The notes below the pieces were generated by a model. The model ran no database searches. It worked only from the letters and a program-made list of their open reading frames with translations, and was not told the DNA's origin. A DNA stretch of 60,325 nucleotides from a virus (lineage: Duplodnaviria; Caudoviricetes): positions 1-60,325 of IMG/VR virus record IMGVR_UViG_3300031689_000003; one strand, given 5' to 3'. Shown here piece by piece: positions 1 through 57,152 of the stretch (position 1 is the stretch's first letter; each line of letters starts with the position of its first letter). A program made the position numbers and the translations under genes.

Positions 1-819
1 AATTCAGATATCGCACAGTTAACCAAGAAAGACAAAGCTAACTTACTATCTGTCATAGATGGTTATGCAAGCCAATTCACTATCGGAATGGAAGTAGAGA
101 AATCTCAGATGTATAGAGGAGCAGTTAAGCAATATGCATTATTCGCAGGATTTGAGAGAGATTCTTCCTGCGGATATGAAGCAGTAACACATATCTTACC
201 TTTAATACCTAAAGGTGTTTGGAGGAACAAAGTGTATTCTATGATGCACGATGCAAAGAAAGTTATCGAGGATGCATATTCACCAAGTGACTATAGATGT
301 GGCGGTCACATAACTGTTGCAGTTGATGGATTAGATGGTGATGACATTCGTAAAGCAGTACGTAAAAATATGGGTGTAGTTTATGCCCTATTCAGAAAGC
401 GTTTAGGTAATAGCTATTGTAATGGTAACTTACTAATGACTGATAGCGGTAGCGGAAGATACCAAAGTGTATTAGTTAAGAGAAATGTTTTAGAGTTTAG
501 ACTTGTATCAAGGTTTCAATCTGTAAAGCAAATGATGAGAAGATATGAGTTAATCTATGAGTTACTTAATTTCTCTATCAACAATCCAAACGGAAGCCAC
601 AATGCTTTTCTTAAGAAAGTTACACCAATCATTAAATCTATGTATGGAGGTGATATGGAGAAAGTAGCTACAATCATTGACTTAGCTAAAGGATTTAGAA
701 AGTATATGATTAGCGGTAAAGTAAATCGTAAAGTAATTGATTTCGTTGACCCAATGAGAAGACTGAATGCAGATGTCTCTTACGATAGAGACTTACTAAC
801 TAACGGATATAGGGAGTAA
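1..819 (+). CDS. Putative amidoligase (COOH-NH2 ligase, glutamine-synthetase-like fold); 5'-truncated by window edge
   Basis: Frame 1 is open from base 1. Motifs FTIGMEVEK, RDSSCGYEAVT, CGGHITV and VLEFRL match the GxExE...DxS...E...CGxH...EFR pattern of phage amidoligases. Confidence 0.7.
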   Translation, partial: NSDIAQLTKKDKANLLSVIDGYASQFTIGMEVEKSQMYRGAVKQYALFAGFERDSSCGYEAVTHILPLIPKGVWRNKVYSMMHDAKKVIEDAYSPSDYRCGGHITVAVDGLDGDDIRKAVRKNMGVVYALFRKRLGNSYCNGNLLMTDSGSGRYQSVLVKRNVLEFRLVSRFQSVKQMMRRYELIYELLNFSINNPNGSHNAFLKKVTPIIKSMYGGDMEKVATIIDLAKGFRKYMISGKVNRKVIDFVDPMRRLNADVSYDRDLLTNGYRE

Positions 820-827
820 TAATGAGT

Positions 828-853
828 AGAGCACGCATACGGTAGCGTGCTCT
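828..853 (+). other. Stem-loop immediately 5' of hammerhead 1
   Basis: AGAGCACGC-ATACGGTA-GCGTGCTCT, perfect 9-bp stem just after the stop codon at 819. Confidence 0.75.
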
Positions 854-906
854 TTCTGTCTACAGGTGATTGCCTGTACTGATGATTCATAAAGATGAAA
901 CAGAAA
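853..906 (+). ncRNA. Type III hammerhead ribozyme 1 (predicted cleavage after GUC, C860)
   Basis: Stem III TTTCTGT(853-859)/ACAGAAA(900-906); stem I TACAGG-TGATTG-CCTGTA; core CTGATGA 879-885; short stem II TC-ATAAA-GA; GAAA 897-900. Confidence 0.88.
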
Positions 907-922
907 CTTAAAACCTTTAATT

Positions 923-1135
923 ATGAAATTAGTATCAAATTGTGCGAAGTTAGCAATAGTGCTTTACGGAACTATGCTATCATTTATGGTAACAAGATTA
1001 CTGTACGAACTAAGTAATGAAGTAGAGTCTTTAACAGACTTATTCTTCTTTACTACCATAACCTTATTCCTTGGTTTATTAATAGGATGTGCAAGTACGT
1101 TAATCTATAAAGAAGTATCTAAAATCAAAAATTAA
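923..1135 (+). CDS. Small membrane protein (2 hydrophobic segments)
   Basis: ORF track; two hydrophobic stretches; AATT-ATG start. Confidence 0.65.
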   Translation: MKLVSNCAKLAIVLYGTMLSFMVTRLLYELSNEVESLTDLFFFTTITLFLGLLIGCASTLIYKEVSKIKN

Positions 1136-1137
1136 TT

Positions 1138-1269
1138 ATGAAGAAATCATTCAAAGTATTTAGCAGATTGATGGCAATATCATTCGCCATAGTAATACTA
1201 ATAAACCTAATGTCTTGCGGAAGTAGCAAACAATGCAAGAAGCTACCTACCTATGGTTGGTACAAATAG
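1138..1269 (+). CDS. Tiny lipoprotein 1 (43 aa, not in ORF track)
   Basis: MKKSFKVFSRLMAISFAIVILINLMSCGSSKQCKKLPTYGWYK: basic N-terminus, hydrophobic core, LMS-C lipobox. Confidence 0.75.
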   Translation: MKKSFKVFSRLMAISFAIVILINLMSCGSSKQCKKLPTYGWYK

Positions 1270-1378
1270 GCTCAAATCCGACATACTCAGCTATCAAGAG
1301 GTAGCTGAAAGTGTCTTAGGAGTCGTTTGTGAAAGCCGATTTTCGGCAAAATCACTAATAATCACTAATAACAAGCAA

Positions 1379-1543
1379 ATGGAGCAACAAAGCTATTATA
1401 AGGTAAGATACGCAGGAAAACTAATTAAGGTTGTAACTGCCCATTCAAAATGGCAAGCTATCGATATTATTTACGAGAAGAACAAATCGCAATTCCCTTG
1501 GATAATAAGACAAAAATTAACCGCAGTAAAATATAAAAACTAA
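1379..1543 (+). CDS. Hypothetical protein (probable start MEQQSYY)
   Basis: 3' part of ORF 1253..1543; the upstream part overlaps lipoprotein 1 and a structured spacer. Confidence 0.55.
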   Translation: MEQQSYYKVRYAGKLIKVVTAHSKWQAIDIIYEKNKSQFPWIIRQKLTAVKYKN

Positions 1544-1546
1544 ATT

Positions 1547-1687
1547 ATGAAGAAATCATTAAACCAAGAACAAGCAATGTTAAGAGCAGCAGCAATAGTA
1601 TTTGCTATGATAATGTTAATCAGTCTATCTTCTTGTGGCAGTACATCGTGTACAACTCGAGCAGGTAACTATAATACAGTTAGATAA
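1547..1687 (+). CDS. Tiny lipoprotein 2 (46 aa, not in ORF track), paralog of 1138..1269
   Basis: MKKSLNQEQAMLRAAAIVFAMIMLISLSSCGSTSCTTRAGNYNTVR: LSS-C lipobox; TAATG overlap with next gene. Confidence 0.75.
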   Translation: MKKSLNQEQAMLRAAAIVFAMIMLISLSSCGSTSCTTRAGNYNTVR

Positions 1688-1881
1688 TGGCAGATGCATA
1701 TACAGAGCAAGCGATTTATAATTATTTTAAAACGCAAACGGAAATGGAATGTGACAAAGTTTATGATACGGGAGCACACGAGATAGTAATATTTATAAAC
1801 GAGCAGGAGGTTATAGAATGCCTAAACAATGCCTGCGATTACAATATTTATATGCCAATAGAAACTACTAATATTAATTAA
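1687..1881 (+). CDS. Small acidic hypothetical protein
   Basis: ORF track; translationally coupled to upstream gene. Confidence 0.6.
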   Translation: MADAYTEQAIYNYFKTQTEMECDKVYDTGAHEIVIFINEQEVIECLNNACDYNIYMPIETTNIN

Positions 1882-1891
1882 AATCAAATCA

Positions 1892-2128
1892 ATGGATTCA
1901 AAATTTAAGTGGACAGAAATTAAAGTACAACGTTATGCACAATTCTATTGCAACAATAGTAAGTGGTTCAGTTACAATGCAACTGAGAAATCAACACAAA
2001 CTATGGAAGCATTCAAGGAAGCATACAAGTTCAGAGAAGTTTACAATGTCAATACAGATGTAAGCGAAGCATTAAAAACCCTAAAGAGAGAAGGGTATAA
2101 AGTATCTCTCTCACTTTCAGAAAGGTAG
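1892..2128 (+). CDS. Hypothetical protein
   Basis: ORF track; AAATCAAATCA-ATG leader like neighbouring genes. Confidence 0.6.
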   Translation: MDSKFKWTEIKVQRYAQFYCNNSKWFSYNATEKSTQTMEAFKEAYKFREVYNVNTDVSEALKTLKREGYKVSLSLSER

Positions 2129-2135
2129 ATGGCAG

Positions 2136-2167
2136 TTAGGCTATGTCTAAATTTTGTCGTATCTTTG
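2136..2167 (+). promoter_or_regulatory. Early promoter, Bacteroidota -7 box TATCTTTG with upstream TTAGG-N3-TGTCTAAATT
   Basis: TAnnTTTG at 2160-2167; same upstream motif and spacing recur at 4042-4073. Confidence 0.7.
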
Positions 2168-2188
2168 TATAAATCAAATCAGAGGTCT

Positions 2189-2204
2189 GTGTCTTCAAAG
2201 ACAC
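2189..2204. repeat. 16-bp dyad motif copy 1
   Basis: GTGTCTTCAAAGACAC between the promoter and the ATG at 2226. Confidence 0.9.
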
Positions 2205-2225
2205 TCCTCACAAATCAAATCAATT

Positions 2226-3317
2226 ATGTGTATTATTATTATCAAACAAAAAGGTAATGTGATGTCAAGAGAAATCGCAAAGACATCATCAAAAATTAAT
2301 CCTCACGGATTAGGAATCGTTTGGCTCGATACGTTCGAGGTAACTTATCACGAATCCAAAGAGTATCAGCAGTTACTTACTACACGTCCGTTTATCGCAC
2401 ACTTTAGATATGCTACAGTAGGTAAGGTAGGATTATCAAACACGCATCCATTTGTATGCGGTAAGAACAAGGATGAACTATTAATGCAGAATGGAACTAT
2501 CAGAGGGATAGGAACAGATGAGATGTGCGACAGTAAAGTATTAGCTATCTCACTTGGAAACATTAAGAGGCAGGATTGGAAGAGAGAACTTGAGCAATAT
2601 GACTCAAGGTTTTGTAGTGTAAACTTACGCACACGTTCATTCCAAATTTATAATCGTAACCTATATACTTATAGAGATGGCGTTTGGTATTCTAAAACAA
2701 ATGTATTGCAGGACAATTTGGTTGCGGTGTACGGAACTCTTAAGAAAGGTTTTGGTAACTATAATGCATACCTTACAAACTCAAAGCATTTAGGTAGCGG
2801 AGTAACAAACGAAAAGTATCCATTGGTTGTTGATGGATTACCTTACCTGCTACCACAAGCAGGTGTAGGTCACAATGTAAAGGTTGATGTATTCAAAGTA
2901 AGTGATGTAACGTTCAAGAAGTTAGACCAACTTGAAGGACATCCAAGATGGTACAAGCGAAAGCAAATAGAAATTAATATGGATGGCAAGCCAAACCTAA
3001 CTTGTTGGGTTTACTTTAATCCTAAAGTGGTTGACCCAAGAACAGAATTTGTTCAGTCATTTGAGTATAGTCCATACCAAATGCAACAAACTGTAGGAGA
3101 TGTGCAAGATGACTGCACAACTGAAACTGATGAAGCACCATTAATAAATCATTATCAATATGACTTTGGTTGGGATGACAATGACTTTCCAACTAATGAT
3201 ACACCAACGTGTATTGATTGTTACAATGATGTAGAGCACGATGGATTTAGTAATTATTATTGTTCCTCTTGTGGTGGGTGGTTCAAGGAAGACGAGGTCT
3301 TGAAGTATCAAGAGTAG
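2226..3317 (+). CDS. Class II glutamine amidotransferase fused to gamma-glutamylcyclotransferase (AIG2-like) and a C-terminal Cys4 Zn ribbon
   Basis: True start is MCIII (Cys2 Ntn nucleophile). GATase-II motifs: HFRYAT, NTHPF, QNG, CDS. GGCT motifs: VAVYGTLKKG.N, LDQLEGHP.WY.R. C-terminus has CIDC...CSSC. Confidence 0.85.
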   Translation: MCIIIIKQKGNVMSREIAKTSSKINPHGLGIVWLDTFEVTYHESKEYQQLLTTRPFIAHFRYATVGKVGLSNTHPFVCGKNKDELLMQNGTIRGIGTDEMCDSKVLAISLGNIKRQDWKRELEQYDSRFCSVNLRTRSFQIYNRNLYTYRDGVWYSKTNVLQDNLVAVYGTLKKGFGNYNAYLTNSKHLGSGVTNEKYPLVVDGLPYLLPQAGVGHNVKVDVFKVSDVTFKKLDQLEGHPRWYKRKQIEINMDGKPNLTCWVYFNPKVVDPRTEFVQSFEYSPYQMQQTVGDVQDDCTTETDEAPLINHYQYDFGWDDNDFPTNDTPTCIDCYNDVEHDGFSNYYCSSCGGWFKEDEVLKYQE

Positions 3318-3329
3318 TCTAAAAGGGTA

Positions 3330-3345
3330 GTGTCTTCAAGGACAC
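3330..3345. repeat. 16-bp dyad motif copy 2, within extended hairpin 3324-3351 preceding hammerhead 2
   Basis: GTGTCTTCAAGGACAC; AGGGTAGTGTC-TTCAAG-GACACTATCCT. Confidence 0.9.
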
Positions 3346-3350
3346 TATCC

Positions 3351-3401
3351 TCCGTATCAAGATGTTTGTCTTGGCTGATGATTCCATAAGGATGAAACGG
3401 A
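3351..3401 (+). ncRNA. Type III hammerhead ribozyme 2 (predicted cleavage after GUA, A3356)
   Basis: Stem III TCCGT(3351-3355)/ACGGA(3397-3401); stem I TCAAGA-TGTTTG-TCTTGG; CTGATGA 3375-3381; stem II TCC-ATAA-GGA; GAAA 3394-3397. Confidence 0.88.
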
Positions 3402-3418
3402 AACTTAAATTAAATTAT

Positions 3419-3637
3419 ATGTCACCAAAAATTAAAGAAGCTATAGCAGTTTTAAACAAGGCAGGATATGTAACATCATTATGGCACATTAGCGATGTAC
3501 AGAACAACTACGTATGCACCATATCTGAGGCAGAACTTATCTTGGAAGAGGTACTATCGTGCGAACACACAACACAAATTATTAACGAAGCTATCGATTA
3601 CGAAGCTGAACAAAAAGAATTAGAATGTCAAGAGTAA
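3419..3637 (+). CDS. Hypothetical protein (probable start MSPKIK)
   Basis: 3' part of ORF 3362..3637; the upstream part is the ribozyme. Confidence 0.6.
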   Translation: MSPKIKEAIAVLNKAGYVTSLWHISDVQNNYVCTISEAELILEEVLSCEHTTQIINEAIDYEAEQKELECQE

Positions 3638-3771
3638 CTAAGAGTACAGAGATTATTCAAATGTTGGAAAAAACTATCAACAGAGGAGGGGATGAAAAAA
3701 CAATCATCACACTCAAAAGAAAATTAAAAGAACTTAAAAAAAATCATACAGATGGCAATAGTACAGAATGA
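3625..3771 (+). CDS. Small hypothetical protein (48 aa, MSRVTKSTEII...)
   Basis: Manual translation; fills the gap and overlaps both neighbours. Confidence 0.45.
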   Translation: MSRVTKSTEIIQMLEKTINRGGDEKTIITLKRKLKELKKNHTDGNSTE

Positions 3772-4045
3772 ATTAATAACGTTAAAAGATGGGTTTAATT
3801 GGTACAAACTGAATGAAGTTCAAGCCTACAAATGTTGGAATGAATCAGTATTTGAAATATACGCAGTTTTTGACGATGAGACTGAGAGTTTATTAGAATC
3901 GTTAGAGGAAATTAAAGAAGCATTTGAGCAAAATACTGCCGTTTGTATGGCAGTAGGTCAGGCTAAACCTAAACCTTGGTTTCATCAGGCTAAAAAAACC
4001 CTGATATCAGGACATTGGTACGTAAAGGTATCAGACATAAATTAG
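3752..4045 (+). CDS. Hypothetical protein
   Basis: ORF track. Confidence 0.6.
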   Translation: MAIVQNELITLKDGFNWYKLNEVQAYKCWNESVFEIYAVFDDETESLLESLEEIKEAFEQNTAVCMAVGQAKPKPWFHQAKKTLISGHWYVKVSDIN

Positions 4046-4073
4046 GTTTTGTCTAAATTAAGTGTTACTTTTG
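4042..4073 (+). promoter_or_regulatory. Early promoter, -7 box TACTTTTG with TTAGG-N3-TGTCTAAATT
   Basis: Same architecture as 2136-2167. Confidence 0.7.
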
Positions 4074-4100
4074 TTTAATCAATCAGTAAAATCAAATCAA

Positions 4101-4301
4101 ATGAGCGAATACACACCACCAAAAGACGTAAAAGAAATTCAGAACGCAAGTTTAGAGCGTATCAACGAAATTGTTATGGACTCTAATTGGTCGAATCCAC
4201 TAACAATGCGTGCTTGTTTTGACAGAGCACTTGAGTTAGGATACGATGGAGGATTTCCAATATCTTTATATTACAACCTTAAACGAAACATTAAACTTTA
4301 A
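4101..4301 (+). CDS. Hypothetical protein (probable start MSEYT)
   Basis: ATG after AAATCAAATCAA leader, downstream of the promoter. Confidence 0.6.
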   Translation: MSEYTPPKDVKEIQNASLERINEIVMDSNWSNPLTMRACFDRALELGYDGGFPISLYYNLKRNIKL

Positions 4302-4311
4302 ATTAAATCAA

Positions 4312-4554
4312 ATGGCAAAGCTATTACAAGCAGACGGTATAACAAGAGTAGGAGCAGACGTGAGCACTCTTGAGAGTATGCAAAAATTAGTAGGAGGATA
4401 CATAGAAATGGTTCACCTAAATGACGGACAAGTACTTGTCTGTAACGAGGAAGGTTTATTATATGGTCTTCCATTTAATATTAATGCGTCAGAATTAGCA
4501 GGCCTACAAATTGTAGGTGATGCTATTTTATGTGACCGAAACGAAATAAGATAA
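4312..4554 (+). CDS. DUF3846-like protein
   Basis: TLESMQKLVGGYIEMV...LVCNEEG...LPFN...IVGDAI pattern. Confidence 0.7.
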   Translation: MAKLLQADGITRVGADVSTLESMQKLVGGYIEMVHLNDGQVLVCNEEGLLYGLPFNINASELAGLQIVGDAILCDRNEIR

Positions 4555-4557
4555 ACT

Positions 4558-4905
4558 ATGAAACATTTTTTAAGAGACGAAATTATTGCTCAGAAATTTG
4601 GCAATCCAAACAACACCAAATATATCCAACGCCTACAACAGATGTTGGATATGCCTGCATATAGTCAGAAAAATTTTGCAGACACGGGTATGATAACAAC
4701 AAAGAAAGATTTTTTATCTTCTTATGCAACACCACCTACACTACATAAAACGTGTACAGATGTTATAAAGTACATAGGAGGTCACTACATTCAGATGCTT
4801 AGCAGCGGTAAATATTTGCTGAAGTATAATGAAGAGAGAGGTAAGAACTCAAAGGACTTAGATAAACTTGAAGCAATCATTTTTAAAACAATAAACAATG
4901 AGTAA
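4558..4905 (+). CDS. Hypothetical protein
   Basis: ORF track. Confidence 0.6.
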   Translation: MKHFLRDEIIAQKFGNPNNTKYIQRLQQMLDMPAYSQKNFADTGMITTKKDFLSSYATPPTLHKTCTDVIKYIGGHYIQMLSSGKYLLKYNEERGKNSKDLDKLEAIIFKTINNE

Positions 4906-5263
4906 AGAAAAAATCATTTCAGTTACAGACGAGGTTCGTGATATGCTAATACAAAAAAATGAGGCTTATGGGAACTCAGCACTTAAACCGATAAACGTTT
5001 TTAGTAAAGGTAATTCCGCTGAATCATTATGTGCAAGAATAGATGATAAGTTAGCAAGAATACAAAACGTAGGTATAACAGACGAGACAGAAGATACTTT
5101 GTTTGACTTAGCAGGTTACTTAATACTACTTATCATAGCATTAAAAACAGAAGAACAAAATCACAATGAAGAAGTGGTAGGACTAACTGACCATTATTTT
5201 AAATTTCACAGTAACGATACAATAAGAAAAAGAAATGCGGAAAACGAATTCGGACAATCATAG
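4898..5263 (+). CDS. DUF1599 / nucleotide-modification-associated (all-alpha NTP pyrophosphohydrolase-like) protein
   Basis: KNEAYGNS...RIDDKLARI...EDTLFDLAGYLIL pattern. Confidence 0.7.
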   Translation: MSKEKIISVTDEVRDMLIQKNEAYGNSALKPINVFSKGNSAESLCARIDDKLARIQNVGITDETEDTLFDLAGYLILLIIALKTEEQNHNEEVVGLTDHYFKFHSNDTIRKRNAENEFGQS

Positions 5264-5387
5264 GACAGACTCTTCAACAAGAGCAAGGGTGTCTTCAAAG
5301 ACACTAAATTGCAACAAGCTATTAACAGAACTATTTGAATCATTTGGCGAGCAATATCAGACCAAATTAAATAAAGAATTAAAATGA
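5235..5387 (+). CDS. Small hypothetical protein (50 aa, MRKTNSDN...)
   Basis: Manual translation; ATGA overlap with next gene. Confidence 0.45.
   Translation: MRKTNSDNHRTDSSTRARVSSKTLNCNKLLTELFESFGEQYQTKLNKELK
5289..5304. repeat. 16-bp dyad motif copy 3
   Basis: GTGTCTTCAAAGACAC. Confidence 0.9.
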
Positions 5388-5686
5388 AATTAGATATTTT
5401 TAATAAGTACGTAGACGAGGTGTGTAACCTTTTCAACATAGACGAAGAGACATTATTTATAAAATCAAAACGAAGAGATATAGTGGATGCAAGACATCTA
5501 CTATATTATTTGTGTTATACAAGACCAATGAGAATAGTTTATATACAAGAGTATATGGCAGACAGAGGTTACACAATCAATCACTCCTCTGTAATCCACG
5601 GTATCTCTATTGTCGGAAAGAAACTCGACAATGATACGGACTACGTGAAGAGCGTAAAAGACATACAGAAATGGCACTTAGTTTAG
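5384..5686 (+). CDS. DnaA C-terminal (domain IV)-like HTH protein 1
   Basis: VCNLFNI.EE.L..KSKRRDIVDARHLLYYL...NHSSVIHGI resembles the DnaA_C signature. Confidence 0.7.
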   Translation: MKLDIFNKYVDEVCNLFNIDEETLFIKSKRRDIVDARHLLYYLCYTRPMRIVYIQEYMADRGYTINHSSVIHGISIVGKKLDNDTDYVKSVKDIQKWHLV

Positions 5687-6102
5687 AAGACATATTCCAA
5701 CAAGCAAAGCAAGATGATTACTGCGTAGAATTAAACGGTAAGGGTTATCAAGCAAGGCTTGTATACGGAATCAAGATAGTAAAAGATAATGAGACAGAAG
5801 AGGTTGTAATCTATAACACCGCAGTAAACGGAAGTTATTATCATATCATCCCAACAGAGACCATTAAAACATTTACAGAAAACTCTTGGAGATACGGAGT
5901 ATATAATTTATCTTTGTCTAACTATCGCACAAAACTCGACATGATTGAGAAGAGAATCAAGACAGAAATCAACGGCAGGAAGTCGGAGAAACAAATCGCA
6001 GGACTCAAATCACATAGAGAAAGAATCCTCGGCAAGTACACCGAAGTAAATCAAAAATTAAATCAATTAAATTCTAATCACAATGAAACAAGTAAAAACT
6101 AA
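5671..6102 (+). CDS. Hypothetical protein with C-terminal coiled coil
   Basis: ORF track. Confidence 0.6.
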   Translation: MALSLEDIFQQAKQDDYCVELNGKGYQARLVYGIKIVKDNETEEVVIYNTAVNGSYYHIIPTETIKTFTENSWRYGVYNLSLSNYRTKLDMIEKRIKTEINGRKSEKQIAGLKSHRERILGKYTEVNQKLNQLNSNHNETSKN

Positions 6103-13818: not shown

Positions 13819-16800
13819 TTAGTCTTGTCCGTAAAAGTCTTTGTACATTTGCTTTTGATATTTCTCATACTCTTTTATCTCATCACTTTTCGGAGGATAA
13901 TATTCCTTGTATAATTCAGGATAGAGTCTTCGCATCTGAGTCTTAGTCATTCCACCATTCTTCTTTGCTTTAACACCATAACCTGCACGATAAGATTTAG
14001 TAATACCTAACAAGTCATAAATATTATCATCAGAAAAATCACCTCCAAAAGTTTTACCTAATGCTATAGGAGCAGTTAATTGAGCACCAAGACCTAATTC
14101 TAATACGGGAGTTACTACTTTAGCTATGCTTCCCTCTCCCTTTGATGCTTCCGTAATTGCTTTTTCTGTTCTTTTAAACACAGTAAGAAATGGATTCACA
14201 CCTTCACTAACAGGTTTTCTGTTTCCCGTTGCTCTATTTACTGCTTCTTCTACTGCTGCACCAAATAAAGGTATCTGATAAACCAATGAAAGGCCTGATG
14301 CTGCAAGCATTACTTGTTTCATTGCCTCTCTTCTTTCTTCATCATCTCCTCTAAGTAATGCTCCTGAATATGAAGCTAAAGCAAACAATGCATTCGAGCC
14401 TGAATAAGCTAAAGCTAATGCTCTAAAATCTGATGCAGGTGCAACCTTACCTTCAGAAGCTAACTTCTGAATATTGTTGGAAGATATCATTACTTTATTC
14501 ATAAGTAAAAATAATGTACTTGCAAACATTGTAAAGAATCTACTACCCGTAGTAGTAGCCATTTGTAGTTGATTTTTTTCTGTATTCCTTCTTGTTTGTT
14601 GAGATGCATTATAATCATTAAACAATTCTGTTGCTTCTGCTAATGGCATTCCGTTTTTAATATCTCTATTGAAAGCTGCTTTGTACCCAAGTACACCCAA
14701 AATATCTCCCAATATTGTGAATACACCTGCTGCCGTGTCATATCCTCTAACTACTTTTCCTAAAATATCTTTCCTGTTTCTAAACTTAGGAGCACTTCTT
14801 TTACCACCTGATTCTAAACCAAATATATCACCCTCTAAACCTCTCTTAAGACGATTCCTAAATCCACCTGAAATTTTCTTTGCTTCCTTAATTTCATTAG
14901 GAAGATTTGCTAAAACAGAAGCATAATCTACCATCAACATAGTAAGGTCTAATCCCGGTATTTTCTTTTTACCTCTACCTCTATAGTTATATTTCTCAAA
15001 TCCAAGAATTGCAGACGATGCCTGCTTAACAGTCTGAATAGGTTTAAATGCTAATGCAAAACCTGTAAACCTACCTTGTATCCAACCTACTGCATCTTGG
15101 TCTAACTTAGGGCCTGACGTAGGATTGATTGCATAATTCAAAGTTGTAGCCAATAACTTTTTTAAACCCGTTTCTTCAAGTACAGTTTGAATCTCAGGTG
15201 ATTTTAATATTGTATTTAATTGTTTTACAGGAAGAGCGTAAGCTTTAAATCTCTCCATCTGCATGATGTGGTCTTCAAAAACTTCACTAAAATCAAAACC
15301 CAATTCAATGTCTGATGTTGTGTCAACTCTTTCTTTAAGAGCAGGTGAAAATTCTGCACTAAAAACCTTACTAAAGTCTCCACTTAGCATATCCGAACTA
15401 TTAATATCTCCACCTTGAGTTCTTGTAGGGAAATAATTATCTACTTTTGTAAGACTAATGTCATTTGATTGTATGTAAATATCATTAGTTTGTGTAAAGT
15501 AATCATTACTTAAGTAATCCATTACCATATCAGCCATCTTAATATTATCTTCTCCAACAAAATCACGTATCACCTTCAACTTTGCATCGGTGAACCCTTG
15601 CTTTCTAAGTTTATTTAACTGAACTTCGTTCTTAGATAATGCATAAATTCGTAAAGCCTTATCTTTCGTTATACCATATTCTTTATATTTTTGTTTTGTC
15701 TTTGCATTTAAAACATTATCTATTGATATAGACTCTTCACCTAAAGAATACTTCCATTTATTAAAAGTGTCAAATCCTATGGTCTGAGCCATAGCATCCA
15801 TATTATCTTCCTGAATAAATACACCCGTGTGATATGCTTCATCTGCAAGATTTAATCTTCTATAGAATGTATCGTTAAACATATTACCCGTTGTTCCTCT
15901 ATCTAAAACATTTGTAAGTGTTCCTAAGTGAACGATATTATTACGTATATATTTTTTAATACCTGTTGGAGAATACTTTAGGTCAGTTGTAAAATCAAAA
16001 AGGAATGCTCTAAGTGCTCCAAAGAAACCATTGTCTTCTAATGATTTTCTTATTGAGGCTCTTCTGTTTATAATTTCATTCCCTCCTAATAATGCTCCTT
16101 TATCCCCAAACAATTCGCTATATTGTCTTTTTATTTGAGTAACAAAATCTTCTTTTATCTTATCAGTTTGTTGCTTTCTTAACGCTCTTCTATTATTTAA
16201 TCTTGCAATAGCTTCTTTTGAAATTAGTTTAGCATCCTGTAATAATGATTCTACTTGATAGTAATCCATATTTATTATATCAGCATAGCTATCAAAAGCT
16301 AATTGCTTATCTAATAAAAATCTTTCTTCATTAGTAATCTCAATACCTTTTGCTATTTTATCTTGAAGTAATTCTATTGTATCTGTATTTATAGAATTTT
16401 TGTATGCCGTTAAGCCTGCAAAATCATTTGCAAGAACCATCTTAAAAACTTGAGCAGCATATGAAAAGTATTTTTGCCCTATAGCATCCACACCTTTACC
16501 TCTTGTCTTACCACTTTCTGTTTTCTTAAATTGAGATTTCTTTTTGACGAAAGTTTGTATGTCGTCAATCATTTTCATTCTAATCTTTTCCCTTACAACA
16601 ACTATTTGTTCCATTACCAAGAACGCTTTACCTTCAAAGTTTTTTGGATTTGTTGAGTTAATTAATCGTAAGAATTTTTCTACCTCTACTTTAGAATACT
16701 TTGTGTTCTTAGGTAAGAATTTTCTAATCAATACTCTCAATCGTTGTTGTGCAGCTACAATATTATCAGCACCTATTTTTTGTTGTCTAATATTATTTTT

Positions 16801-19800
16801 AATAGCAGCTATTTCTGCAGACACACTTTTGTTTGCTCTTGTTCCTAAGACTCTGTCAAAGGCTGAGCGTAATTCCATTTGTGTATTTTCTGATTGAATC
16901 TTAAATACAGGATTTGCCTGTAGCAATTCTTGAGACTTTTCTCTTATCTCTGCATAAGTTCTCGTTCTTTTATTGTCAATTAGTCTCCCGGTATTAGCAT
17001 CAAGTGTTATATCAGCATCTACCTGAGTACTTGCATACTGATTTACCTGCCCTTTTACGGTATTAAATAACGCTCTACCTACATCAACTCCACCTATAAC
17101 ATTGGTGAACTCTAATGGCATCTCAAGGAACGCATCAATGTGTACCTTCATAGCGGTGTTTACTGCTTCCATAGGAAAGCCTCTCTTCTTTAGAACAACT
17201 CTAATGGAGGCATCAGTAAATCCATTTTCCCTACCCTTATCTATTATGCCCTGCATAGATTGTCCACTACTGAATGCGGCTTCAGGATTTTTCATCTGAA
17301 TTAATTGTGCATCCGTTAGTTTTATTTTCTTTCCTGCAAATATATCTGCAAGTGCAGTACCAAGAAATTCGTCTAATGAAAGTGCTTGAACCTCAGCATC
17401 TGTTAAATCTGAAGATAATTTAAACTGTTCTTTAATTGATTTCCACATCCCAAGTAACCATTCTTGAAACTTAGATTTTAAAGATGCATCTGCTATTGTT
17501 TGTCCTTTATTACCTATAAGAATTGCCATTGCTTCATTAGTAGCTTTAGCTATATCTCCATTAAATTTTCTTAACTGAGTAGCAAACTCATCAGTTTGCA
17601 TAACAAGTTCTTGACCTTTACTATAAATGGCTTTACCTTTCTCTGTAGTCTGTAAATAGTCCGTCCAAACGTGCCCCATTTCGTGGATAGCAGTATTGAA
17701 TAACTCTGAATCAGAATTATGTGTTTGAGGGTTTATGTATATGTCACCGTTAACTGTAACTCCATATAGTACTTCGTCTCCTTTTAAGTATACCTTTACT
17801 CCTTCTGATTGTACTACATTATTAAACGTAGTTCCATCTGTAGAGAAAGCAACACTTGGGAACGAGGTATTCATAAAGTTAATTAACTTAGTTCCGTTAT
17901 CAACGTTACCTTCAGTTATCGCTCCTATAAATTCTAATCCCGGTAATCCGTTCTGAACACCAATCGTTTCAGTTAGTATAGTTCCTACACTTGATGGTTT
18001 TAATTGACCTTCTTCTAATACACCTTCAGGATTTTTCTTTACTGCTTTTTCTGTTCTGCTTGCCGCTATTTGCTTCTTGGTAAATGTTTTTCCTTTAGCT
18101 TCATCTTTAGTAAGACCAACTATAGCAGCATTAAATGCGGTAGGGAATGCATCTTGAATCGGAATCGACTCTTCTAAAACTCCAATATTTCTTCCCTTAA
18201 CTCCCCAATCATAATTAGGATGGGTAGTTTTAATTATCTCGGGATTTATCACATCAATACCCTGAATTGCAACCACACTTCTTTGTGGTACATTTTTCAT
18301 TTGTGGGTCAGTAATTAAATCAGTAATTTCAGCAAGAGATAGTAATGTTCTACTTTCAGCAGGCGTATTTTCTAATAATACTTTCGGAACTCCTTTAGTT
18401 GGTTTTCCTGCCTTAGTTGTTTCTCCTGCTCTGTTAGGAGAACCATATGCTATCGTCTCTAACAATACTCTACGTGAGGGTAGTGTTAATGTTTTTAAAA
18501 CTTTAGTATCTAAAAGTTGTTCAATGCTTTCAACGCTTTCAGCTTTAGCAAGCAACTCTTGTTTTTGTTTAATTGTTTTACCATATGCAGCTTTTGTTAA
18601 AGGAGAAATTTTCTTTCCTTTTAAACCTATACCTGTTTCTATTGAATTTTCTAACGCAGCTATGTCGTTTTTAGATTGTTCTATAAACACCTCTAAAGCT
18701 TTTACTTTATTTTCTTTAGGTATCAGAGTAAGATTATCCGCTAAAACTCTAAACGTTGCTTCGTTAGACAACAAAGAGCCTTCACCCATTTTTACAACAG
18801 TTAAAGGAACTAATCCATTATGTTCAGGATTTTGTTTCCACCATTGGTCGAAAATGTTTTGATTTTCTCTATAAATATTTTCTGCTTTTACAAGCATATC
18901 TTTAGCTTCCTTCTCAGTTGTATTAGCCCAAGCCGCTCCTTCGTTTCCTTCCGTCTCCGTAAAACCTAAGCCACCTTTTAAATTATCTATTGTGTTTCCT
19001 GTATTTGGATTTGTAGTATTTCCTGTAGTCAGTTGGTCAGATATTGTAAACACAGTTGGTACTCCGTCTATGATTTCTAACCTCGCAGTTCTAACAGGTC
19101 TGTTAGTTCTGCTTCCTAATTCTTCTCCATCTATAGCCACTCTCTTTCCTGAGTTTATAGTAGTAGATTCATTACCTGTCACCATAGCGTTCATTCTTTC
19201 AATTTCTACTTCTTCAGCTTCAATTTGAATGTCGTTATCAATGTTACCGTCTAAACCTTCTTTCATTCTGAAGTCTACCTTTGGATTTCCCTCAGATATA
19301 ACAGACTCTAAGTCAGAAACTTCTTCATTTAATACTCCCTTATCTTTCTTGAGTTTCTTATTTATTGCTTTAATTTGTTTCTTTGATTCAGAAATAGTTT
19401 CCTTTTCATTATCAATTTCATTCTTTGCATCTTCTTTTAAGTCTTGAATAGCAGTTGCTTTTTCTTCCTTAGATATTTTTTTCTTTCTAACCTCAGCAAC
19501 GTCAGCCTTAAGTTGTTCTCTTATGCTAACAATTTCATTTTGTTTTTCTTCAATCCCACCTTCAATGTCTGCAATCTCTTCTTCTAAGGGATTAATTTCT
19601 AAACCTTCTTCATTTATTTTTGCCTGCGTACCATCTTCGATGAGAGTTTGTTCTTGGTTTTCGGTTTGATTCGTTTCGGTAGTTTCTCCCTTGATGACTG
19701 TTCCCTCTCCCAACGTGCTGCTATCATTGGTTTGTTCTTGTGCATCCACGCTCGTTGTGCTTGACTCTTGAATGGCATTGTCTGTAGTTTTATCTTTGTT

Positions 19801-22800
19801 CATTATATTATTTAACTCCACTATAGATTCAGCGTCATTAAATATTGTTATATTTCTTTTCTTACGTTGTGCAGGTGTTAGTTCTTTAACTTTTTTAAAG
19901 AAGTCATCTTTAGTAAATCTTTTTCTGTTGATAGTATACAAAGGATTCTGTTCCCTTATATCTACATCTGAAGTTTGATTTCCTGAAAACGTTTTAAATT
20001 CAAGGTTAGTTTGATTCTCTTGTGACAATAGTGTCTTTGAAGACACAATACCTGCTAACTCTTTTTTAATCTCACTTATTGTTTCACTAAATATTTCTCT
20101 TTTGTTTGTCGTAGCAGACAGTTCTTGTTTCGCTGCCAAAAGTTCCATTACTCTATTTTCTAAAGCAGGATTAGTTGAAACATCTTGTTTACTGTTCTGA
20201 CCTGTATCAAGCAATAGTCTTGCTTCTTTTCTAAGTCCTATGTTTTCATTTATTCTTTGACCTGCCTCGGGAGTAATCTGTCCAAGTTCAACCATATTAT
20301 TAGTCCAAGTAGCTATTCGTTTAGAAGAATATTTTGACTCTGCTAAAAACTTTAAGTTTTCAAATTGTGCTGCTATATTTATGTTGTTTCTTGAACGACC
20401 ATCCATAAACATATTTATTGCAGCAAAAGGAGCACTCATACCAAATCCACCAACTACTTCATCCATAACATCAGCCATACTTTCTTCTTGACCTGCTGCT
20501 TTCTGTGCTAAATATTCTCCTAATCCTTCAGACAATGGGTCAAGTGTGACAACACTCGCTACACCTGCAGCGGCCCTTGTTCCTCTTGAAGCTAATACAC
20601 CTACCGGGAATAGTCTACCTGCTAAACCCATACTTAATCTGTCTACCGCACCAATAGTAAGTCCACGAGCAAGCCCTATACGTCTTCCTTCTTCCCAAAC
20701 TCTTTCGTCTTTTAATGCTTTAACCATTTCATCAGGGTCAGCAGCGTTGTAACCTATATTGCTGATTGCCTCATATACAGAGTTGGTGTATTCTAAAGCT
20801 ACCATTGTAGCAGCAACACCATTTTTTAATCCATCTATTGAACCTCCCACAACACCTGCAGTCGTTGTTGCAAAACCTATAGGCCCTGCAGTAAAACCTG
20901 TTGCTCCCATAGTACCACCTACTATTGCCTCTGTTGCTACTGTACCTGCAACTATCTTCATACCATAAGGTAACATCTGACTAATTGATTGAGCGGCCAT
21001 ACTTGTTGCAATCTCAAAAGGGTCATCAGAAAACGCATCAAATCTTTCTTCATATGTAAGTGCCCCGTGATATCTACTTAATGCTCTACCTTTAGGTTTA
21101 TTTTGTGAAGCGTTTTTATAATTAACAATATATTCTGCAGCTTCTCTTATTGATAAGTCATCATCCATATCAGTAATGCCTAAAGCAAGTGCTAATATTT
21201 TTTGATTTGCTTTACCATTTTTCCATCCACCACTCCATTCGTTTGATAATGAAGACCAATTTTCAACAAACTCACCACGAGCCTGCTTGTCTACCTTAGC
21301 ACTTAAAAAAGTTTTTGCTAACTCATATTGATTAGCAGCATTAGATTTTTCAAAGTCAACCTCTGATTGTTTTAATAATAATTGGTTTACTCTATATGCC
21401 TCATCTTCAGTTTTTGGTTTGTATTTAATTAGGTTTTCTGCCTTTATTCCAAACTCATTTAGAGTAGCGTAGTTAAGAGCATCTGCCTCTTGACTGTATG
21501 CGTAGTTTACTTTTGCAGCTACTGATAATTGTTTCTGTAATTTTTTATCTACAAGTACATCAAAGTCTTCTCTTACTGTTCTAAACTCATCAGCGTTAAC
21601 CGTCTCTCTTAGTTTTTCTGCTTTCTCTTTAAGATTAATAAGATATTCTGCAATGTCGCTTCGTTGTTTACCATCTACATATAAGTATGCAAATTTTTCT
21701 TTTAGGTTTTCAGGAACATCTTTTTCTCTGAATTGCATCTCATCACTTCCAAAACTACCATCAGTATTTTGTTTACCTGCGGCTTTAGCAAGGTCATAAC
21801 GTTGTCCTTCTATAAAGGTTATCTCATCCATTATACCTTCGTAGTCATCTAACTCTTTTCTATATGTTGTGTAATTAAGACCTCTGTCTGCATAGAATAA
21901 TTTCGCTTCAGAGTCTATTGTACTTACGTCTTTCCAAGAACCCTCAGCAACTTCTTCTGCAGCTTCAGCAGTATCGAAAGTAAATACTTCACCTCTTTTC
22001 AAAGCCTCTTTATATGCTTCCATTCCTTTTTTCTCCATCCACCACATTGGGTCAGAACCATATCGTTGTCCTGTAGTTTTTGGGAAAAGTGTAGGATATA
22101 CTACTTCGTTACCGTCAATATTTGCTGACTCCAATAACACCGTAGATTCTGTTCCATCATCATTAATACGAGCAGTACTTCTAATGTTTCTTATTTTTGT
22201 AGCTACATCAATTACATCTTGCTCAGGAGCAGATAATTGTTCATTAGGATTACGAGCATAAGTTGAAACAAAATTTCTTAGCTTAGCTGATTCCTCTTCG
22301 GATGACATTAAAGTTTTAAGACCTATTAGTTCTACTTCTGTTGAACCGGGTGCAATTACTTCTAAATAATCTCCACCATTTTTTTTAGTTTTTCTAAATA
22401 TAAAACCATACCTCCCATAAAGATTTGTAAAATAAGTAACGGCATCTTCTCCGTCCTTGTCTATAGAATCAGAATCCGTTGCAGATAATGCTAATTCAAA
22501 ATCGGTAGTCTTAAGTATTTTTTTTCTATCCTCTATACCTTTTGTTATCTCTGCATCAATAACTAATTTCTCTGCTGCTTGTCTCTCTATGTTAGCAGGT
22601 TCACTTGCTTTAGTTTCTTGTAAGGTTAATGCAAAGTCAGCAGCCCCTTGACTATTAGCTTCGTCTATTGCTTCCTGTGTAGGATACAGGCCTCCTAATC
22701 TTCTGTCAACAGGAGACTGATAATCCGATTCGCCTATATTAGTAGGGACGTATTCAGGTTCTTCACTATTCTTTTCTTCTTGGCGTAATTTAAAAGCTTC

Positions 22801-23085
22801 AGGGTCAAATATCTCCATCTCGGGTAAGCCCGAAGAACCATCTTCCAAGTCGAATTCCGTATCGTCTTTTTTTTTTACTTGTACAATTTCTTCAACCGTA
22901 GTAATACCCATAAGATTTTTAAAATCATCAAAGTTATCATTGTACCCATTATCTTGAAAATGAGTAAATGAATCCTGAAGTGCATCGGGATTACTTGTAA
23001 TTAATTCTTTAAAAGAATCAAATGTTTCTCTATAACCATTGTTAAGAAATAATTGATAAGCATCTCTTATAGCATCTTCATTCAT
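13819..23085 (-). CDS. Giant (3088 aa) internal virion/ejection protein, polyvalent type, with zincin-like HExxH domain
   Basis: Last gene of the structural arm; GDIYINP...TAIHEMGHVW...EAMA (HEMGH at 17671-17685); Gly/Ala-rich hydrophobic segment; acidic coiled coil. Confidence 0.7.
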   Translation of the reverse strand: MNEDAIRDAYQLFLNNGYRETFDSFKELITSNPDALQDSFTHFQDNGYNDNFDDFKNLMGITTVEEIVQVKKKDDTEFDLEDGSSGLPEMEIFDPEAFKLRQEEKNSEEPEYVPTNIGESDYQSPVDRRLGGLYPTQEAIDEANSQGAADFALTLQETKASEPANIERQAAEKLVIDAEITKGIEDRKKILKTTDFELALSATDSDSIDKDGEDAVTYFTNLYGRYGFIFRKTKKNGGDYLEVIAPGSTEVELIGLKTLMSSEEESAKLRNFVSTYARNPNEQLSAPEQDVIDVATKIRNIRSTARINDDGTESTVLLESANIDGNEVVYPTLFPKTTGQRYGSDPMWWMEKKGMEAYKEALKRGEVFTFDTAEAAEEVAEGSWKDVSTIDSEAKLFYADRGLNYTTYRKELDDYEGIMDEITFIEGQRYDLAKAAGKQNTDGSFGSDEMQFREKDVPENLKEKFAYLYVDGKQRSDIAEYLINLKEKAEKLRETVNADEFRTVREDFDVLVDKKLQKQLSVAAKVNYAYSQEADALNYATLNEFGIKAENLIKYKPKTEDEAYRVNQLLLKQSEVDFEKSNAANQYELAKTFLSAKVDKQARGEFVENWSSLSNEWSGGWKNGKANQKILALALGITDMDDDLSIREAAEYIVNYKNASQNKPKGRALSRYHGALTYEERFDAFSDDPFEIATSMAAQSISQMLPYGMKIVAGTVATEAIVGGTMGATGFTAGPIGFATTTAGVVGGSIDGLKNGVAATMVALEYTNSVYEAISNIGYNAADPDEMVKALKDERVWEEGRRIGLARGLTIGAVDRLSMGLAGRLFPVGVLASRGTRAAAGVASVVTLDPLSEGLGEYLAQKAAGQEESMADVMDEVVGGFGMSAPFAAINMFMDGRSRNNINIAAQFENLKFLAESKYSSKRIATWTNNMVELGQITPEAGQRINENIGLRKEARLLLDTGQNSKQDVSTNPALENRVMELLAAKQELSATTNKREIFSETISEIKKELAGIVSSKTLLSQENQTNLEFKTFSGNQTSDVDIREQNPLYTINRKRFTKDDFFKKVKELTPAQRKKRNITIFNDAESIVELNNIMNKDKTTDNAIQESSTTSVDAQEQTNDSSTLGEGTVIKGETTETNQTENQEQTLIEDGTQAKINEEGLEINPLEEEIADIEGGIEEKQNEIVSIREQLKADVAEVRKKKISKEEKATAIQDLKEDAKNEIDNEKETISESKKQIKAINKKLKKDKGVLNEEVSDLESVISEGNPKVDFRMKEGLDGNIDNDIQIEAEEVEIERMNAMVTGNESTTINSGKRVAIDGEELGSRTNRPVRTARLEIIDGVPTVFTISDQLTTGNTTNPNTGNTIDNLKGGLGFTETEGNEGAAWANTTEKEAKDMLVKAENIYRENQNIFDQWWKQNPEHNGLVPLTVVKMGEGSLLSNEATFRVLADNLTLIPKENKVKALEVFIEQSKNDIAALENSIETGIGLKGKKISPLTKAAYGKTIKQKQELLAKAESVESIEQLLDTKVLKTLTLPSRRVLLETIAYGSPNRAGETTKAGKPTKGVPKVLLENTPAESRTLLSLAEITDLITDPQMKNVPQRSVVAIQGIDVINPEIIKTTHPNYDWGVKGRNIGVLEESIPIQDAFPTAFNAAIVGLTKDEAKGKTFTKKQIAASRTEKAVKKNPEGVLEEGQLKPSSVGTILTETIGVQNGLPGLEFIGAITEGNVDNGTKLINFMNTSFPSVAFSTDGTTFNNVVQSEGVKVYLKGDEVLYGVTVNGDIYINPQTHNSDSELFNTAIHEMGHVWTDYLQTTEKGKAIYSKGQELVMQTDEFATQLRKFNGDIAKATNEAMAILIGNKGQTIADASLKSKFQEWLLGMWKSIKEQFKLSSDLTDAEVQALSLDEFLGTALADIFAGKKIKLTDAQLIQMKNPEAAFSSGQSMQGIIDKGRENGFTDASIRVVLKKRGFPMEAVNTAMKVHIDAFLEMPLEFTNVIGGVDVGRALFNTVKGQVNQYASTQVDADITLDANTGRLIDNKRTRTYAEIREKSQELLQANPVFKIQSENTQMELRSAFDRVLGTRANKSVSAEIAAIKNNIRQQKIGADNIVAAQQRLRVLIRKFLPKNTKYSKVEVEKFLRLINSTNPKNFEGKAFLVMEQIVVVREKIRMKMIDDIQTFVKKKSQFKKTESGKTRGKGVDAIGQKYFSYAAQVFKMVLANDFAGLTAYKNSINTDTIELLQDKIAKGIEITNEERFLLDKQLAFDSYADIINMDYYQVESLLQDAKLISKEAIARLNNRRALRKQQTDKIKEDFVTQIKRQYSELFGDKGALLGGNEIINRRASIRKSLEDNGFFGALRAFLFDFTTDLKYSPTGIKKYIRNNIVHLGTLTNVLDRGTTGNMFNDTFYRRLNLADEAYHTGVFIQEDNMDAMAQTIGFDTFNKWKYSLGEESISIDNVLNAKTKQKYKEYGITKDKALRIYALSKNEVQLNKLRKQGFTDAKLKVIRDFVGEDNIKMADMVMDYLSNDYFTQTNDIYIQSNDISLTKVDNYFPTRTQGGDINSSDMLSGDFSKVFSAEFSPALKERVDTTSDIELGFDFSEVFEDHIMQMERFKAYALPVKQLNTILKSPEIQTVLEETGLKKLLATTLNYAINPTSGPKLDQDAVGWIQGRFTGFALAFKPIQTVKQASSAILGFEKYNYRGRGKKKIPGLDLTMLMVDYASVLANLPNEIKEAKKISGGFRNRLKRGLEGDIFGLESGGKRSAPKFRNRKDILGKVVRGYDTAAGVFTILGDILGVLGYKAAFNRDIKNGMPLAEATELFNDYNASQQTRRNTEKNQLQMATTTGSRFFTMFASTLFLLMNKVMISSNNIQKLASEGKVAPASDFRALALAYSGSNALFALASYSGALLRGDDEERREAMKQVMLAASGLSLVYQIPLFGAAVEEAVNRATGNRKPVSEGVNPFLTVFKRTEKAITEASKGEGSIAKVVTPVLELGLGAQLTAPIALGKTFGGDFSDDNIYDLLGITKSYRAGYGVKAKKNGGMTKTQMRRLYPELYKEYYPPKSDEIKEYEKYQKQMYKDFYGQD
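20031..20046. repeat. 16-bp dyad motif copy 6 (inside giant CDS)
   Basis: GTGTCTTTGAAGACAC; encodes VSSKT on - strand. Confidence 0.9.
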
Positions 23086-43161: not shown

Positions 43162-43628
43162 TTATTTTCTTTTAAAAAACAAACTTGAATTAATCTTGCG
43201 TTTTCTGCAGAACCATAATTGTCAAATATATTTCTTGAATGATATAAGTCAGATGGAAATACAACTAATCTATTATACTTTGCTTTTAATATACAACTTT
43301 TTTTTCCTTTGTAATATAAAGTTGTTCCATCTTCTTCAGGATGCTTTTCGTTTAAATACAATATAGCCGTTAAATCACCCATCATCTCATCAGTATGAAT
43401 ATAATTTGGTTCATCTTGATAGATTGGAGACCTTCTTGCAAAGTTTAAGTCAGGTGAATAATTAGGATATTTAATTAATAAAAAATCTACTAACTCATCA
43501 CGACCTCTTGCTTGTACATTCTTAAAAGTATCTTCACCTAAGAGAATATCTTCAAAGCCTTTTTTTAAAATGTCTTTTTTGTAGGAGTCAACATTTTTAA
43601 TAACATTATTATAAATTCCTACATTCAT
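43158..43628 (-). CDS. 2OG-Fe(II) oxygenase superfamily protein
   Basis: IHTD...AILYLN...GTTLY...YNRLVVF...HSR...RLIQV. Confidence 0.82.
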   Translation of the reverse strand: MNVGIYNNVIKNVDSYKKDILKKGFEDILLGEDTFKNVQARGRDELVDFLLIKYPNYSPDLNFARRSPIYQDEPNYIHTDEMMGDLTAILYLNEKHPEEDGTTLYYKGKKSCILKAKYNRLVVFPSDLYHSRNIFDNYGSAENARLIQVCFLKENK

Positions 43629-44188
43629 AATTTAAGTGTAATTTGATGGTCATATATTCTATATAACTTCTCTCCATTTACTTCAAACTCATATTCACTT
43701 TCAGGCTGAAAAGAAACTTTGTCTCCTTTCTTAATTCCTTTACTCATTAAATATTTATTTGGATATTTCATTACACCAACTAAAGGTTCTTCACTTACAT
43801 TTTTATAAATATAAGAGTCAGTTGTAGGAATAGGTTTAACAAAACAATACCTATCATAGGTATGCCATTCTGTTCCATCGTGATATAAAAAATATTGGTC
43901 AGGTTCTATAAAGAATAAATTATCTTTAAAGAAACTTCTACCGCTTCTTCTATTACCTTTAATGTCATTGTAGAATTTGAATACATTATGATGCACAAGA
44001 AGTGTGTCACCCTTTTTTACAGGGCCTTCATAACTTAGTGGAAGTTCTATTACTGTTGCTTCTCTATTTGAAAACTTATGGTCTTCCTCAGAAGTACTTG
44101 TAATAAAATCAATCCCACCTATATCTTTTGTATTATTATATCGTTTCCCCTTTACAGGTTCGACTATAAAAAAGAATGGTGATTGCAT
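43625..44188 (-). CDS. Tandem GroES-like co-chaperonin
   Basis: Two units: FIVEP...GGI...ATVI...VKKGDTLL and CFVKP...GVM...IKKGDKVSF..ESEYEFEVNGEKLYRI. Confidence 0.65.
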   Translation of the reverse strand: MQSPFFFIVEPVKGKRYNNTKDIGGIDFITSTSEEDHKFSNREATVIELPLSYEGPVKKGDTLLVHHNVFKFYNDIKGNRRSGRSFFKDNLFFIEPDQYFLYHDGTEWHTYDRYCFVKPIPTTDSYIYKNVSEEPLVGVMKYPNKYLMSKGIKKGDKVSFQPESEYEFEVNGEKLYRIYDHQITLKL

Positions 44189-57066: not shown

Positions 57067-57152
57067 TGGTTATCTTCTTTATATATTTGAAAAAGTACAA
57101 CAAGGCATACAAACAAACATATGAACCCTGTATATACCAAATCTCCTATCAT
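57063..57152 (-). CDS. 29-aa single-TM peptide between groEL and groES
   Basis: MIGDLVYTGFICLFVCLVVLFQIYKEDNQ; TAATG overlap with groEL, ATGA overlap with groES. Confidence 0.55.
   Translation of the reverse strand: MIGDLVYTGFICLFVCLVVLFQIYKEDNQ

Follow-up and report, generated by a model that had tools for sequence, protein, structure and literature searches.

Natural hammerhead ribozymes in which stem II opens with a U10.1-U11.1 mismatch were described by Perreault et al. (2011, PLoS Comput Biol, PMC3088659), the only such description found among open-access full texts (supplements apart). A single sentence of its available main text is devoted to U-U, and that sentence carries no frequency. 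According to the same paper, stem II commonly consists of just two pairs, a one-pair version is fast, and U-U was the most active mispair in the work of Ruffner, Stormo and Uhlenbeck (1990, as cited there). Prophage hammerheads which flank genes or short gene blocks were reported in this source to cleave in transcripts of approximately 2 kb. A processing role for bacterial and phage hammerheads has been suggested, not proven (PMC6765202 and PMC6155905, in the portions available). In the canonical core the purine N7 at position 10.1 and the A9 phosphate bind a divalent metal (available text of PMC7151607).

Two type III hammerheads, HH1 and HH2, were identified in IMG/VR record IMGVR_UViG_3300031689_000003, a complete virus record of 60,325 bases which was analysed at its full length and is referred to below as the window. 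They share the core variation of the hammerheads of Perreault et al. (2011), namely the U10.1-U11.1 mismatch together with a very short stem II, and like the prophage hammerheads described there they sit a short distance apart in the spacers that separate small phage genes, with the same polarity as those genes. It is quite likely that HH1 and HH2 are functional-type type III hammerheads which belong to a published natural variant and act as processing sites of an early operon; what the analysis establishes is the sequence, the fold, covariation in relatives, the position relative to genes and the presence of the region in RNA libraries, and self-cleavage and its effects are predicted.

Genome and host group

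The gene content of the window is that of a tailed phage, with genes for terminase, portal and structural proteins, lysis, primase and helicase, and further genes for a Sak-like annealing protein and GroEL/GroES. The phage-encoded GroEL was located at 57152-58741 on the minus strand (E 7.8e-130) and a GroES-like co-chaperonin at 43625-44188, also on the minus strand. The minus-strand structural block has at its start an ORF of 3088 aa (13819-23085, minus strand), for which no PHROG match was found at E 1e-5. A block of plus-strand genes, small and mostly of unknown function, runs from approximately 59.4 kb through the start of the record to 13.7 kb. No tRNA genes were found in the window by ARAGORN, and megablast of positions 1-6000 against GenBank phages gave no match.

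Homologs of the large terminase subunit were found in 87 GenBank phage records, comprising 68 of Flavobacterium, 15 of Cellulophaga, two of Tenacibaculum, one of Maribacter and one uncultured Caudoviricetes. The best match, at 74.6% identity, was to the uncultured Caudoviricetes record, and the other 86 records were below 60%. Judged by these sequences, the hammerhead-bearing clade is assigned to tailed phages of Flavobacteriia (Bacteroidota).

Structure of the two hammerheads

The core and helices of both ribozymes were read from the sequence, from the Rfam model RF00008 (Hammerhead_3) and from a model of our own, R1. HH1 occupies positions 853-906 on the plus strand. Its stem III is formed by 853-859/900-906 (plus strand) and its stem I by 861-867/872-878, closed by the loop GAUU. 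The cleavage site is GUC, with U16.1 at 859 and C17 at 860, and the cut is predicted between 860 and 861. The core CUGAUGA lies at 879-885, GAA at 897-899 and A15.1 at 900. Stem II has two Watson-Crick pairs (887-888/894-895) and a 5-nt loop, AUAAA, and is flanked by U10.1 at 886 and U11.1 at 896.

HH2 occupies positions 3351-3401, likewise on the plus strand, with stem III at 3351-3355/3397-3401 (plus strand) and stem I at 3357-3363/3368-3374 (loop GUUU). The cleavage site is GUA, with A17 at 3356 and a predicted cut between 3356 and 3357. The core is found at 3375-3381 and GAA at 3394-3396, while stem II (3383-3385/3390-3392) has three pairs and the loop AUAA, with U10.1 at 3382 and U11.1 at 3393. 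In the window copies the unusual loop II (AUAA) is found alongside a loop I that is also atypical, its fourth base being U in place of G; such examples are few.

All invariant hammerhead core bases (C3-U4-G5-A6-N7-G8-A9 and G12-A13-A14) are present in both copies, as is the A15.1-U16.1 pair followed by a base other than G at position 17 (A900-U859 with C860 in HH1, A3397-U3355 with A3356 in HH2). Absent from both is a Watson-Crick pair at 10.1-11.1. An earlier note on this DNA had placed U-U at 886/896 and 3382/3393, at the base of a minimal stem II, and the sequence reads exactly so.

Homology and covariation

Based on the loose pattern CUGAUGA-N4-30-GAAA, seven matches were found in the window against 1.41 expected, a number reached in none of 100 shuffles; the full hammerhead architecture was present in two of the seven, HH1 and HH2. 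Permissive searches with RF00008, run on stretches of 161 bases, matched both sites across all 54 model positions with 32.1 bits (E 1.5e-5) for HH1 and 30.6 bits (E 4e-5) for HH2, both under the gathering score of 48.5 bits.

An 18-base motif common to HH1 and HH2 occurs in more than 118 viral contigs, and among the matches listed for it the full type III architecture was recognized in 60 distinct sequences. Thirteen other matches to this motif were examined, of which 10 proved to be hammerheads of type I, likewise with U-U, and the others were acidic coding repeats.

Covariation was assessed on an alignment of 96 sequences out of 127 references, the 31 with a length other than 57 being excluded. 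Standard pairs filled 90.7% of 1614 cells, compared to 65.3% in shuffled alignments (0 of 500 shuffles reached 90.7%), and the covariation score reached 0.700, whereas shuffles gave 0.185 and alignments with slid partners no more than 0.107. Helices I, II and III were paired in 100%, 83.6% and 84.6% of cases, respectively. Fourteen of the 17 pairs vary on both sides, and in stem I both-side changes were seen at six of the seven pairs. Two loop bases, the U that opens loop I and the A that closes loop II, are the same in all of the aligned relatives (96 of 96); they may form the tertiary contact between the two loops.

R1 was built from the 96-sequence alignment. In the window it recognized two sites, HH1 (69.6 bits) and HH2 (60.9 bits), both on the gene strand, the next match scoring 12.5 bits. 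Since HH1 and HH2 are themselves among the 96 seeds of R1, the independent evidence is the Rfam match.

Recognition by Rfam and cultured relatives

At the Rfam gathering score the whole window gave no match, and no other known ribozyme class was called. The expectation of the earlier note that a standard descriptor may miss these ribozymes held, but the miss is not specific to U-U, as relatives with G-C are missed too. Ten related loci searched with RF00008 gave eight matches, all below 48.5 bits (31.6-46.1). Seven of these are G-C copies (46.1, 45.1, 45.1, 43.5, 43.2, 34.1 and 31.6 bits) and the single U-U copy scored 36.5 bits; the failure of Rfam is therefore not due to U-U alone. The whole clade is under-scored by RF00008, and U-U depresses the score further. 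HH1 and HH2 share topology and core with RF00008 from end to end of its 54 positions, and the clade differs from it in a short conserved loop I (U-G-N-G-U-G), a stem II of three pairs and an NAAA loop. In the annotation of phage genomes, an entire clade of hammerheads from marine phages thus goes unmarked under the Rfam cut-off; searches with R1, or with a seed specific to this clade, would pick them up.

R1 was also run on five related GenBank phage records. Four of them, including the closest, MW202828.1, had no match at E <=0.01. The fifth, NC_055853.1, is the record of a cultured phage, Flavobacterium phage vB_FspP_elemoF_6-3D, and contains one hammerhead of the clade at 17864-17922 on the minus strand (45.4 bits). 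It keeps the loop I motif of the clade and lies in the spacer immediately before gp59, a small gene; unlike HH1 and HH2 with their U-U, it has G10.1-C11.1 and the core CUGAAGA. The annotation of the stretch 16900-18900 of NC_055853.1 lists no hammerhead feature.

Variation at position 10.1-11.1

The frequency of U-U was determined in three tests that involved no selection on 10.1 or 11.1: a scan in which loop I served as the anchor, two scans that left both positions free (N), and a survey of loci collected via the protein encoded upstream of HH2. The scan anchored on loop I and CUGAUGA returned at least 100 distinct fragments; in 80 of those listed GAAA lay in range, and stems I and III were confirmed in 75. 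Among these matches listed (n=75), 37 had G-C and 23 had U-U, an extra U preceded a G-C pair in seven, A-A was found in five, and A/C, G-U and G/A in one each. Two complete scans were made with N at both 10.1 and 11.1 and a fixed interior of stem II. With the interior UCC-AAAA-GGA there were 73 matches (37 U-U, 35 G-C, one A/C); with UUC-AAAA-GAA there were 60 (four U-U, 56 G-C, no A/C). In the 29 loci collected via the upstream protein, R1 gave 36 matches, comprising 16 G-C, 13 U-U, six A-A and one with a U insert. Fifteen of the sites in these loci are orthologs of HH2, situated directly past the gene, and of these seven have U-U, five A-A and three G-C.

A-U, U-A and C-G were seen at 10.1-11.1 in none of the three sets (for the loop I set, among the matches listed). 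The inner pairs of stem II include all four Watson-Crick types, with zero mismatches in the 96-sequence alignment. U-U occurs with A17 in 21 of 23 cases and G-C with C17 in 24 of 37 (loop I set, among the matches listed). In three phage contigs (L108, L115 and L127) G-C copies are found together with U-U or A-A copies.

Since natural U-U hammerheads are in print (Perreault et al. 2011, available text) and 23 of the 75 clade members among the matches listed carry U-U, a Watson-Crick pair at 10.1-11.1, mostly G-C, is a usual feature of hammerheads, not an absolute one. The earlier note had put the variant forward as possibly new and had itself named published precedent as what would remove that novelty; with natural U10.1-U11.1 hammerheads published in PMC3088659 (available text) and abundant in viral contigs, the novelty is lost. 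The U-U variant is real and, having been published in 2011 and being frequent among phage relatives, ordinary. By comparison of these sequences, U10.1-U11.1 appears to be one of three states accepted by the clade, the others being G-C and A-A.

A broader proposal can be put forward only tentatively. Position 10.1-11.1 may be limited to G-C, U-U and A-A, besides an extra U on one side, with A-U, U-A and C-G never accepted and the three states swapping at a single orthologous site, so that the base of stem II might be read by shape or by a metal or tertiary contact rather than through simple pairing. The A9/G10.1 metal site would then be dispensable, or rebuilt, in approximately 40% of members, and, given the fixed layout described below, the element might constitute a natural insulator of the 5' leader that comes in rate variants.

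Several oddities of the clade were recorded alongside these states. A10.1-A11.1 members include L127:2872-2928, L193:11766-11822, L237:2680-2736, L240:2665-2721, L235:2690-2746, L241:2201-2257, L236:2690-2746 and others; among the open-access matches listed (supplements apart), no hammerhead with A10.1 or A11.1 was found in the literature. An extra unpaired U between A9 and G10.1-C11.1 is present in L144, L145, L154, L175, L201, L219 and L245:538-595. In L133, L135, L146 and L159 U10.1-U11.1 is combined with a reversed U15.1-A16.1 pair, GAAU replacing the usual GAAA; a U15.1-A16.1 variant is weakly active according to the available text of PMC3088659. One ortholog of HH2 (L243:2652-2708) has U-U and the core CCGAUGA, with C at position 4, and judging from that core it may be inactive or a variant. 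Twister and hammerhead ribozymes are known to co-occur. In keeping with this, two such sequences lie no more than 1 kb from a hammerhead with U-U in the viral contig L143: a twister-P5 at 2363-2437, which exceeds the Rfam cut-off (46.1 bits, cut-off 37.6), and a match resembling twister-P1 at 1458-1551, which falls short of it.

Genomic layout and proposed role in processing

HH1 and HH2 lie on the gene strand, in spacers between small ORFs of the plus-strand early operon. They are 2.5 kb apart and enclose a 2.4-kb block with about seven small ORFs and one of 387 aa. Upstream of HH1 is an ORF of 243 aa with no family match (88..819, plus strand), whose transcript would end at HH1, followed by a stable hairpin of nine pairs (828..853, plus strand) which directly adjoins stem III. 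The first ORF past HH1 (923..1135, plus strand; 70 aa, no family match) has its ATG 16 nt past stem III. HH2 is preceded by an ORF with a gamma-glutamyl cyclotransferase-like domain (2154..3317, plus strand), the final gene of the inter-ribozyme block, and by a stable hairpin of 11 pairs with a GUGUC...GACAC core (3325..3350, plus strand), which adjoins its stem III. The ATG of the first ORF past HH2 (3419..3637, plus strand; 72 aa, no family match) lies 17 nt past stem III. In both cases the upstream hairpin stops exactly where stem III starts.

This layout was compared with a context set of 173 distinct type III hammerheads from related loci. A hairpin of -8 kcal/mol or lower ends 0-1 nt before stem III in 106 of the 173, and such a hairpin was found within 36 nt upstream for 64% of 175 hammerheads, compared to approximately 10% of random 36-nt segments from the same loci. 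An ATG opening an ORF of at least 40 codons follows within 120 nt in 169 of 173 (median 22 nt), against 275 of 519 random positions. Only two of the 173 are inside an open frame.

As the position in gene-strand spacers, the abutting hairpin and the nearby ATG recur throughout the clade, HH1 and HH2 are read as processing sites of an early polycistronic RNA. This proposed reading agrees with the role suggested for bacterial and phage hammerheads in the available portions of PMC6765202 and PMC6155905. Each ribozyme would fold during transcription of the operon and cut on the 3' side of C860 or A3356. On the upstream product this would leave the stable hairpin and a few bases ending in a 2',3'-cyclic phosphate, and the downstream product would begin with a 5'-OH, followed by the compact body of the ribozyme and a short A-rich leader, approximately 17 nt ahead of the start codon. 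In this way the ends of each block of cistrons could be defined separately, and with the ends also how stable the block is and in what context it is translated, a situation resembling that created by engineered ribozyme insulators.

In insulators of the RiboJ type a hammerhead in the 5' leader removes the upstream RNA and so fixes the 5' end of the coding region. These elements are synthetic and have an extra hairpin downstream of the ribozyme, whereas the hairpin of HH1 and HH2 is upstream and would be retained on the 5' product. A classical intrinsic terminator was considered as the general role of the hairpin and rejected, because a T-rich tail is found at the HH1 hairpin only and the HH2 hairpin and those of most relatives have tails of mixed C and U.

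The near-palindrome GTGTC-N6-GACAC occurs nine times in the window against 0.69 expected (0 of 100 shuffles reached nine). The 16-base sites start at 2189, 3330, 5289, 7480, 11750, 20031, 42684, 58071 and 59677. Those at 5289 and 7480 are intergenic hairpins with no ribozyme, and other copies lie within long ORFs (helicase, the 3088-aa ORF, terminase and groEL). In related contigs the same hairpin stands ahead of many hammerheads. The element may act as a hairpin in RNA or as a protein-binding site in DNA.

Activity and alternative explanations

The HH1/HH2 region was found at 99% identity or more in contigs from four RNA libraries of three studies. On account of this presence the region is probably transcribed, with carry-over of DNA possible. 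The HH1 cut site is bridged by two contigs (600-1141 and 648-929) from two RNA libraries of one study; these represent uncut RNA or carried-over DNA and are compatible with incomplete cleavage of HH1. No RNA-library contig spans the HH2 cut site and one begins at 3398, gaps between contigs proving nothing.

That HH1 and HH2 are chance look-alikes or non-catalytic clusters of hairpins, for example terminators only, is highly improbable. Their scores under the Rfam cut-off would fit such a reading, as would the terminator-like appearance of the hairpin at 828-853, whose tail is T-rich. Against this, no invariant core base is missing from either copy, all three stems strongly covary, hundreds of relatives stand at a fixed distance to start codons, and the tail of the HH2 hairpin is not T-rich. 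If the ribozymes are genuine, U-U (and A-A) could still be a tuning device that makes cleavage slower or less complete, or alters its metal dependence, thereby setting the ratio of cut to uncut early transcript; we hold this reading, which is that of the earlier note, to be possible, on the doubtful side. U10.1 has no purine N7 as metal ligand such as G10.1 offers (PMC7151607, available text), and a kinetic cost of U-U is therefore possible. The mixing of G-C with U-U or A-A copies within L108, L115 and L127, the company that U-U keeps with A17 and G-C mostly with C17 (among the matches listed), and the contigs across the HH1 cut site point the same way. The association of U-U with A17 may, however, be mere shared descent, and the bridging contigs may derive from DNA in the RNA libraries. 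The exchange of three states at one orthologous site is what near-neutral alternatives would show, and together with the rank of U-U as the most active mispair (Ruffner et al. 1990, as cited in the available text of PMC3088659) it argues against a strong defect of U-U itself.

A difference between the two copies may lie in stem II. The minimum-energy fold of HH2 has the canonical hammerhead shape; in that of HH1, stems I and III are formed and stem II is replaced by a 5-pair helix which sequesters G12-A14. Compared to the clade consensus, HH1 has two inner pairs of stem II rather than three and a 5-nt loop, and its alignment to R1 was flagged for a non-standard pair and a deletion in this stem. 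The HH1 ortholog in the nearest relative (L231:18-74) has a regular 3-pair stem II and an AAAA loop. Thus, on these models, HH1 is the only one of the two copies that looks weakened, by its two-pair stem II and the competing helix. It is conceivable, if rather unlikely, that HH2 is active and HH1 a decaying or very slow copy which remains mostly uncut, and the two RNA-library contigs that cross the HH1 site would accord with this. Yet a two-pair stem II is common and even a one-pair version is fast (available text of PMC3088659), stems I and III and all core bases of HH1 are intact, and folding during transcription can outrun the competing helix. The reading of both HH1 and HH2 as self-cleaving processing sites is preferred.

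Implications

The basic picture is unchanged, the U-U variant and its phage context having been in print since 2011. Three points are modestly new: U-U is common among these phage hammerheads, 10.1-11.1 appears to be confined to G-C, U-U and A-A, and hairpin, ribozyme, leader and ATG form a fixed module. The clade supplies natural triplets of G-C, U-U and A-A in similar scaffolds, a series with which position 10.1-11.1 and the metal site may be probed. The phage of NC_055853.1 offers a cultivable system for studying the role of the clade hammerheads. Their steady place approximately 20 nt before start codons, right past a hairpin, provides a testable model for the role of hammerheads in phages.
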